DNA from: Escherichia coli
GTDB lineage: Bacteria; Pseudomonadota; Gammaproteobacteria; Enterobacterales; Enterobacteriaceae
NCBI RefSeq assembly: GCF_003334815.1
Contig: NZ_QOWO01000016.1
Direction: 5' to 3' (one strand)
DNA: 64,000 nucleotides
The stretch's first letter is position 1, and each line of letters starts with the position of its first letter. Positions 16,154 to 16,313 of the stretch are shown here, piece after piece. Under the pieces are notes generated by a model. The model was not told where the DNA came from. It was given only the letters and a program-made list of their open reading frames with translations, and searched no databases. The position numbers and the translations under genes were made by a program.

Positions 16154-16313
16154 TGTCAATGGAACAAAGATTGCTGCATGTACAAATGTTCTTTGGCTAC
16201 AAATACACCTACTGATCATGTTCTGCTATGCTCTGATACCTCCAAAATGTACAATCAGCGGCATGAATTTTTCTTTGTACATATGATTGTACATAATTAA
16301 AGAGACAACAATT

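Follow-up and report, generated by a model that had tools for sequence, protein, structure and literature searches.

The closest described systems to the locus analyzed here, a region upstream of prfC in Escherichia coli, are the attachment (att) sites of phages and integrative elements that rely on tyrosine integrases. In phage lambda, the N-domain of Int binds the P1, P2 and P'1–P'3 sites of attP—an arrangement that, like that of the prophage described in this study, combines a heterobivalent integrase with a motif unrelated to the core and repeated on both arms (PMC2951348, PMC8138268). Tandem sites roughly one helical turn apart and arms of roughly 180–240 bp are further points of likeness. 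The arm-binding family of the lambda enzyme is a different one, however, as our phage integrase carries a PF13356/DUF4102 domain with an extra strand and helix, and lambda has five arm sites as compared to eight boxes in our case; moreover, the P' arm is longer here and the target lies inside a protein-coding gene. The lambda arm motif is of the CAGTCACTAT type, as opposed to TTGTACAT in the phage under study. Other described relatives are the IntS enzymes of KplE1/HK620 and ICEMlSymR7A, in which int is located directly beside attL, much as the putative arm-type boxes of our phage family occupy the last ~80 bp before the int ATG. In KplE1, the IntS arm sites overlap the intS promoter, and IntS and the excisionase (RDF) repress PintS (PMC2951348). 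For the P4-type IntS of ICEMlSymR7A, five arm motifs are described within an attP of 283 bp; integration needs every one of them, and the attP-bound protein represses intS (PMC11963761). ICEMlSymR7A uses TGKTGGTATC and KplE1 a motif that contains TAAA, both different from our box and, unlike the phages inserted in prfC, both elements target tRNA genes.

The SXT/R391 elements, which are conjugative elements and not phages, use the same target as our prophage, with the crossover in the same codons of prfC (IISHP; PMC2786100, PMC5812530). They also supply a new prfC 5' end and, in the case of SXT, a new promoter (PMC8409611). The IntSXT subgroup of tyrosine recombinases is defined by the DUF4102 domain, and all members of its SXT cluster—phage cdt1, SXT and related ICEs—insert at prfC (Smyshlyaev et al. 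2021, PMC8138268). Together with the integrase of phage cdt1, the SXT/R391 enzyme belongs to the same subgroup and cluster as the integrase of our phage, the placement of the latter in the cluster being based on similarity and the shared target. The two enzymes, however, are only 38% identical overall; in SXT/R391 elements, xis separates int from attP, and a distant SetCD-dependent promoter, Ps003, drives int instead of a promoter in the arm (PMC4344509). Finally, prfC is a recognized integration locus for Stx1a/Stx2c-converting and Cdt-I phages (PMC10132054, PMC8138268). Studies of these prophages have used the gene as a locus label, and those consulted do not discuss arm boxes or the replaced prfC 5' end. 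Our literature search retrieved no publication in which the Int sites of the SXT attP are mapped, and no report linking TGTACA to arm-type sites, to a fixed core position or to sharing between prfC phages and SXT/R391; subscription-journal work on the att sites of phage cdt1, SXT and phi80 lay outside its scope. Arm-type sites are an ordinary and known kind of feature—it is the TGTACA box motif itself that we did not find described.

The DNA studied here (hereafter the window: the whole stretch of 64,000 nucleotides, from contig NZ_QOWO01000016.1, to which all positions refer) contains four copies of the hexamer TGTACA between a dinI-like gene and prfC. They lie at 16179, 16248, 16276 and 16288, with 6 bp between the last two, exactly where the initial annotation had located them. 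The spacer, which had been given as ~190 bp, measures 219 bp when counted between the start of dinI (16094) and the ATG annotated for prfC (16314), the shorter figure (~192 bp) being obtained if the mechanical TTG start of the open reading frame (ORF) at 16287 is used as the end point. A chance cluster in AT-rich intergenic DNA could be suspected, as the window contains nine TGTACA copies versus 10.3 expected, i.e., no overall excess, and the region has a GC content of only 32%. Yet four of these nine copies are packed into 115 bp, and TGTACA is the only palindromic hexamer with four copies inside 115 bp in the whole 64-kb window. Furthermore, when the spacer sequence itself (220 bp, 32% GC) served as the local null model in 200,000 dinucleotide-preserving shuffles, at least four copies arose in 21 of them—a conservative test, because the shuffle retains the motif's own dinucleotides. 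Considered together with the four additional copies on the far arm and the positional conservation over nine unrelated arm types (both detailed below), these figures leave coincidence with a negligible probability. The proposal that the cluster is simply AT-rich promoter DNA is likewise rejected by the local-shuffle statistics and by the conservation across species.

The full unit is longer than the hexamer and asymmetric, reading TTGTACAT (complement, ATGTACAA), and occurs five times in the window, four of them inside the cluster. Boxes S1 (16178..16185, minus strand) and S2 (16247..16254, minus strand) have the reverse orientation, ATGTACAA, and place their TGTACA 183 and 114 bp, respectively, upstream of the start of the recombination core described below. 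Boxes S3 (16275..16282, plus strand) and S4 (16287..16294, plus strand) are forward copies of TTGTACAT, with TGTACA at −86 and −74 from the core; they represent the first and second members of a conserved proximal pair and together make up a 22-nt module, TGTACATATGATTGTACATAAT (16276–16297). In relatives, the unit shrinks to GTACA, an asymmetric motif whose copies follow one another in direct orientation at a 12-bp distance—the arrangement of integrase arm-type sites, unlike that of palindromic operators. We consider it probable, on the basis of sequence comparisons, that the TGTACA boxes are arm-type binding sites of the tyrosine integrase of the prophage, forming the P arm of attR. The initial annotation had suggested binding sites for a dimeric regulator, and one half of that suggestion stands: the boxes are very probably sites for a protein, but the dimeric regulator is probably wrong, as the extended unit is asymmetric and tandem and no dyad-symmetric unit is conserved as a palindrome. 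Among the known E. coli operators considered (TrpR, TyrR, LexA and others) none fits the motif, and the segment is not E. coli backbone in any case. No Rfam family matched between positions 12000 and 18400 of the window.

The question of whether this segment is backbone or prophage-derived had been left undecided, and our genome comparisons resolve it in favor of a prophage. The whole dinI–prfC junction is present in 645 of 5426 complete E. coli genomes (~12%), while in the remaining ones the match begins at about position 16334, inside prfC. In addition, no TGTACA occurs in the yjjG–prfC region of a K-12-type strain, where attB is located, and K-12-type genomes do not carry the same sequence. 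The limited distribution of the junction and the TGTACA-free region of the K-12-type strain therefore indicate that the segment is not part of the backbone. Homology to other dinI-carrying prophages ends near 16159, and backbone homology begins near 16334. A four-way comparison of attB, attL, attP and attR places attR—the P arm plus the identity core—at 16160..16375 (plus strand), with an approximate left limit. It consists of the left half of attP, as found in phage 2H10 (278 of 281 positions identical to the window arm), and the right half of attB, which meet at an identity core of 14 bp, ATTATTTCTCACCC (16362..16375, plus strand); this core is common to all four sites, and strand exchange must take place within it. 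The closest complete genome, NZ_CP135957.1 (99.4% identity across the junction), contains a lambdoid prophage between yjjG and prfC; at the far end of this prophage, the native prfC promoter and a 5' remnant of the gene lie beside yjjG, followed by a tyrosine integrase gene. The att end of the Stx1a/Stx2c-converting and Cdt-I prophages inserted at prfC has the same sequence as that of the window (records LC727876–LC727902, 98.6% identical over positions 16095–16378). The cargo of the window prophage is different: it comprises a tail module of myovirus type accompanied by an invertase, and the portion of the prophage inside the window showed no stx gene.

As a consequence of the junction, the lysogen carries a hybrid prfC gene, encoding release factor 3 (ORF at 16314..17900, plus strand; the PGAP start in NZ_CP135957.1 maps to 16314). 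The phage provides both the substitute start codon (ATG at 16314) and a replacement for the first 16 codons (16314..16361, plus strand), with a sequence that differs from the native 5' end. Every other prfC-inserted element included in the comparison also supplies its own substitute prfC 5' end.

An uninterrupted attP is available in phage 2H10 (NC_049950), where it lies between dinI and int. On one side of the core start, this attP has boxes at −183, −114, −86 and −74; on the int side, they are found at +178, +190, +199 and +229, with the int ATG at +244. A motif unlike the core is thus repeated on both arms, four boxes on each side, and the cluster in the window is therefore half of a set of eight. 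At the far end of the prophage in NZ_CP135957.1, the locus contains exactly four TGTACA copies in 10 kb, all of them inside the 57 bp directly upstream of int. A 22-nt direct repeat, TGTACATATGMTTGTACATAAT, flanks the core in attP, with its copies 264 bp apart; the consensus of this module is TGTACATATG[A/C]TTGTACATAAT, and the S3/S4 copy and the int-side copy share 95% identity. The core itself is embedded in an inverted repeat of 7 bp, AATTATT-(9 bp)-AATAATT, shaped like core-type sites, so that an identity core and core-type inverted repeats, as in lambda-type attachment sites, are both present. A second repeat, TCCTTTCA, occurs in two copies 75 bp apart on the int-side arm only, between the core and the boxes (positions 2817–2836 and 2892–2911 of the 2H10 excerpt L003). 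It is kept in the Salmonella, Pantoea and 77% relatives introduced below and is less clear in those from Xenorhabdus and Serratia.

The cognate integrase, WP_001218291.1, has the domain composition of an enzyme that binds two kinds of site. Pfam searches identified PF13356 Arm-DNA-bind_3/DUF4102 (residues 3–90, E=5e-16), PF22022 Phage_int_M and PF00589 Phage_integrase, i.e., an arm-binding N-domain besides the core-binding and catalytic domains, as in lambda-type systems. The N-domain matches PDB entries 3JTZ/3RMP and 3JU0, which we take to be solved arm-binding domains of genomic-island integrases. [quoted passage not shown] In every comparison, the N-domain was the best-conserved part of the integrase, reaching 56.7% identity in R997 versus 32.9% for the remainder of the protein.

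Conservation of the boxes on the int-side arm was assessed in eight loci picked by protein similarity alone and fetched with their flanks. The search of viral contigs for integrases had returned relatives of at least 96% identity only, which were of no use for footprinting, and the phage collection contained no integrase between 95% and 47% identity. Six of the eight relatives are inserted at the same point of prfC, in Salmonella (84% integrase identity), Pantoea stewartii (82%), an unknown host (77%), Xenorhabdus (65%), Serratia (61%) and Vibrio (51%), and each of them carries three to four TGTACA boxes within the ~80 bp that precede int. Core and int ATG remain 242–247 nt apart for integrases of at least 61% identity, despite diverged sequence in between, whereas 223 nt separate them in the Vibrio island L213; in every case, the last box borders directly on the int Shine–Dalgarno sequence, TGTACAAGGTGAG (int-side arms L084, L086, L088, L089, L090 and L107). 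In the two remaining relatives (~51–54% identity), which reside at other chromosomal sites, the 12-bp-spaced pair, or a degenerate version of it, is still present. Box positions relative to the core are hence kept while the flanks diverge—the behavior of a lambda-type attachment site. The Vibrio diabolicus locus L213 is a non-phage island at prfC with the same site and the same boxes; it encodes a second tyrosine recombinase, an HTH_17 protein and a type I restriction protein (HsdR), and is a defence-type island with the integration module of phages and ICEs.

The window's own arm was followed through attR junctions gathered via the N-terminus of PrfC, that is, viral contigs ending in prfC, which yielded 22 distinct types of upstream sequence. 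A (T)GTACA pair at −86/−74 (±1) from the core was found in nine of the 22 types, where 0.0005 would be expected by chance, even though these nine arms are only 30–55% identical to one another; no such pair exists in native prfC upstream regions. The third and fourth hexamers of the window, within S3 and S4, sit exactly at these positions. S1 and S2, at −183 and −114, are restricted to E. coli-type arms (L224, L240 and L244) and absent from more distant arm types, which makes the role of S1 and S2 less certain than the role of S3 and S4. The motif-unbiased evidence comprises the eight protein-ascertained loci, eight phage records (discussed below) and the prfC-ascertained junctions.

The circular record of R997 (NZ_KY433363.1) extends this conservation to SXT/R391 elements. 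Its pair lies at −87/−75, identical to that of viral contig L254. Two more pairs are present: the other arm has one at +157/+169, and a third one, of GTACA, lies upstream of xis at +395/+408; the boxes read TGTACAAA, compared to TGTACATA in the phage, which does not have the extra +395/+408 pair. In R997, xis is placed between attP and int, and int is consequently not adjacent to attP. The pairs nevertheless keep their distance from the core, and we therefore conclude that the placement of the boxes is tied to the recombination core, as opposed to the int promoter. The record also shows a short duplication of sequence at the core (…ATCATC|ATTATTTCCCACCC…; L255/L257), which probably stems from the joining of attR and attL ends.

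This behavior of R997 bears on the possibility that the boxes are promoter or operator elements of prfC and int—with a −35-like TTGTACA and a −10-like TACATAAT—or sites for a dimeric repressor. Such a function would be in keeping with their location, since the boxes lie 20–135 bp upstream of the prfC ATG, the last int-side box abuts the int Shine–Dalgarno sequence and an annotated candidate −10 element of int overlaps a box in phi80; moreover, a promoter for prfC has to come from the phage, as it comes from the element in the case of SXT (PMC8409611). However, a consensus scan detected no sigma-70-type promoter on the plus strand in 16095–16314, and the 12-bp spacing of the boxes, which leaves a 10-nt spacer, is far too short for a −35/−10 pair. 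Adding the core distance maintained in R997, where int is transcribed from elsewhere, and the asymmetric, tandem unit, which is not that of a palindromic operator, we regard promoter or operator elements as quite improbable. A dual role of the boxes, as arm sites and in promoter occlusion, may instead be accommodated within the integrase model. The neighboring pair of XRE and ImmA genes (14411–15300) was considered separately as a source of the protein reading the boxes and was discarded, as phage 2H10 has no such pair and yet keeps all eight boxes.

Besides the integrase, the excisionase, a 64-aa HTH_17/Xis-like protein (WP_001061365.1 in the phage), could be the one that binds the boxes. RDF genes of the HTH_17/Xis superfamily lie next to most of these integrases and, because they do, co-occurrence alone does not separate the two proteins; a precedent is provided by KplE1, where five sites for the RDF TorI in attL overlap the int promoter (PMC2951348). 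Nonetheless, the presence of boxes on both arms and far from the core is the pattern of arm-type sites. The same TGTACA box is furthermore shared by elements with unalignable excisionases—BLASTP returned no alignment at all between the E. coli-phage protein and that of R997—in which the Int N-domains are 56.7% identical. The TCCTTTCA repeat, confined to the int-side arm, is a better candidate than the TGTACA boxes for excisionase, accessory or bending-protein sites. We therefore deem an excisionase unlikely as the reader of the boxes, and favor the N-domain of the integrase.

To examine how widely the box occurs, viral contigs were searched with a 16-base probe for the pair. It retrieved 120 loci, 59 of which have the pair directly upstream of an integrase homolog (25–100% identity); as the set was ascertained by the motif itself, this count describes an association and not a frequency. 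The typical layout places the pair at about −65/−53 from the integrase gene with a third box near −16, and several loci have a second pair 230–265 bp farther upstream. The eight phage records, in turn, were found by protein similarity alone, and in these the architecture is kept whereas the box has changed. Gifsy-1 and Klebsiella phage Kpn_R1, with integrases 46–47% identical to ours, show the same two-arm layout with repeats of TGTCCA/TGGACA; in Kpn_R1, a pair of these spaced by 12 bp lies on the far arm. The box of mEp234 is G[T/C]GTACCA, that of a Vibrio phage is TTGTACCAAAT (GTACCA type), Stx2 phage 86 and Hafnia phage yong2 have GTACA variants, and phi80 shows TGTACA-N6-TGTACC. In Gifsy-1, which uses TGTCCA, the integrase has no N-domain excess of the kind seen in R997 (50.0% versus 45.5%). 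In distant relatives, the box drifts along with the N-domain of the integrase, and this co-drift lends indirect support to binding of the boxes by the domain; TGTCCA, a one-base shift of the arm motif in Gifsy-1 and Kpn_R1, could help to map its specificity residues.

The same data speak to a host nucleoid or accessory protein recruited to att sites as the binder of the boxes. Lambda-type intasomes need host bending proteins, and no match to the strict IHF consensus WATCAR-N4-TTR was found in the attP of 2H10, leaving room for another factor, although IHF sites are common and not obligatory in the lambda-type class. Against a host factor, the boxes recur across very different hosts (Escherichia, Xenorhabdus, Vibrio, Moraxella and the GC-rich host of L236), and within Salmonella they vary with the integrase, as the 84% relative has TGTACA and Gifsy-1 has TGTCCA. 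Recognition by such a protein is thus highly improbable.

If the boxes are indeed arm-type sites of the integrase, its catalytic and core-binding domains would act on the core ATTATTTCTCACCC inside prfC, while the N-terminal Arm-DNA-bind_3 (DUF4102) domain would dock on the boxes. The folded arms would bring integrase protomers to the core and would govern both integration and excision. Upon integration, the boxes are split between the two junctions, with the four int-side copies falling outside the window. The int-side set is then located directly over the int promoter and ribosome-binding region, and the set in the window over the ~130 bp on which transcription of the hybrid prfC must now depend. 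In analogy to the IntS enzymes of KplE1 (PMC2951348) and ICEMlSymR7A (PMC11963761), the int-side boxes could let the integrase repress its own gene. The anatomy of the att sites, the presence of boxes on both arms, the domains of the integrase and the conservation and co-drift of the boxes with its N-domain come directly from the comparisons, whereas physical binding of Int, any autoregulation of int and any effect on prfC expression are inferred. In these lysogens, prfC is expressed from phage DNA that integrase probably occupies.

This interpretation turns a cluster of hexamers into a testable annotation, i.e., the recombination arm of a family of phages with toxin-converting members. The (T)GTACA pair, with its constant spacing from the core, is a simple signature that could help to delimit prophages and islands with integrases of the IntSXT subgroup. 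The phages inserted at prfC (including Stx1a-, Stx2c- and Cdt-I-converting ones) and the SXT/R391 elements share the core sequence, the (T)GTACA arm code and the arm geometry, which points to a recognition code common to Stx/Cdt phages and the resistance elements that compete with them for prfC. As a tentative and rather doubtful extension, the phage Int and the SXT/R391 Int may recognize each other's att sites, and Int bound at S3/S4 could modulate the expression of release factor 3 in the lysogen. Were cross-recognition to occur, a resident prophage could excise, block or tandem-capture an incoming SXT/R391 element or recombine with it, and the roles could also be exchanged.

The remaining prophage genes of the window deserve a brief description. 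The last one before attR is the dinI-like gene (15846..16094, minus strand; 82 aa), which matches PHROG 189, the RecA-filament-binding DinI (E=4e-31); in NZ_CP135957.1, it carries the annotation DinI-like family protein. Between this gene and the boxes lie two palindromes that resemble LexA boxes, CTGTGTTTGTATACAG (16110–16125) and CTGTATAAATAAACAG (16138–16153), separate from the TGTACA set. They follow the pattern CTGT-N8-ACAG, their function being read from the known LexA consensus, and overlap a promoter-like site of dinI (TTGACA at 16159..16154, minus strand, with an 18-nt spacer), which suggests SOS control of the prophage dinI beside attR. The sole terminator-like match (16107–16128, by plus-strand hairpin score) coincides with the first of these palindromes.

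Near the prophage end, the genes for an XRE-type HTH protein (119 aa) and for a metallopeptidase of the ImmA/IrrE type (173 aa) are adjacent to each other at 14411–15300. This module is present in NZ_CP135957.1 and absent from 2H10, and hence represents mobile cargo and not att machinery. Between the invertase and the XRE/ImmA pair, an AT-rich island at 12500–14400 (GC content of 0.30–0.35, compared to ~0.55 for the tail genes) has the look of inserted accessory cargo; the 313-aa ORF inside it (13066–14007) has a weak match to an uncharacterized PHROG only. The tail-fibre region (9652–12456) contains oppositely oriented fibre and assembly ORFs beside a Gin/Cin-type DNA invertase (11866–12456; PHROG 125, E=1e-97) and has the appearance of an invertible host-range switch. 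In phage 2H10, two more TGTACA copies (positions 1054 and 1098 of L003) are found directly upstream of the DNA invertase gene, ~1.5 kb from attP, with no counterpart seen in the window. Finally, the late region of the window prophage is contractile-tail-like, unlike that of the lambdoid prophage with the same att ends in NZ_CP135957.1; the occurrence of the same att ends on such different phage bodies therefore indicates that the att/int module has been exchanged between them.
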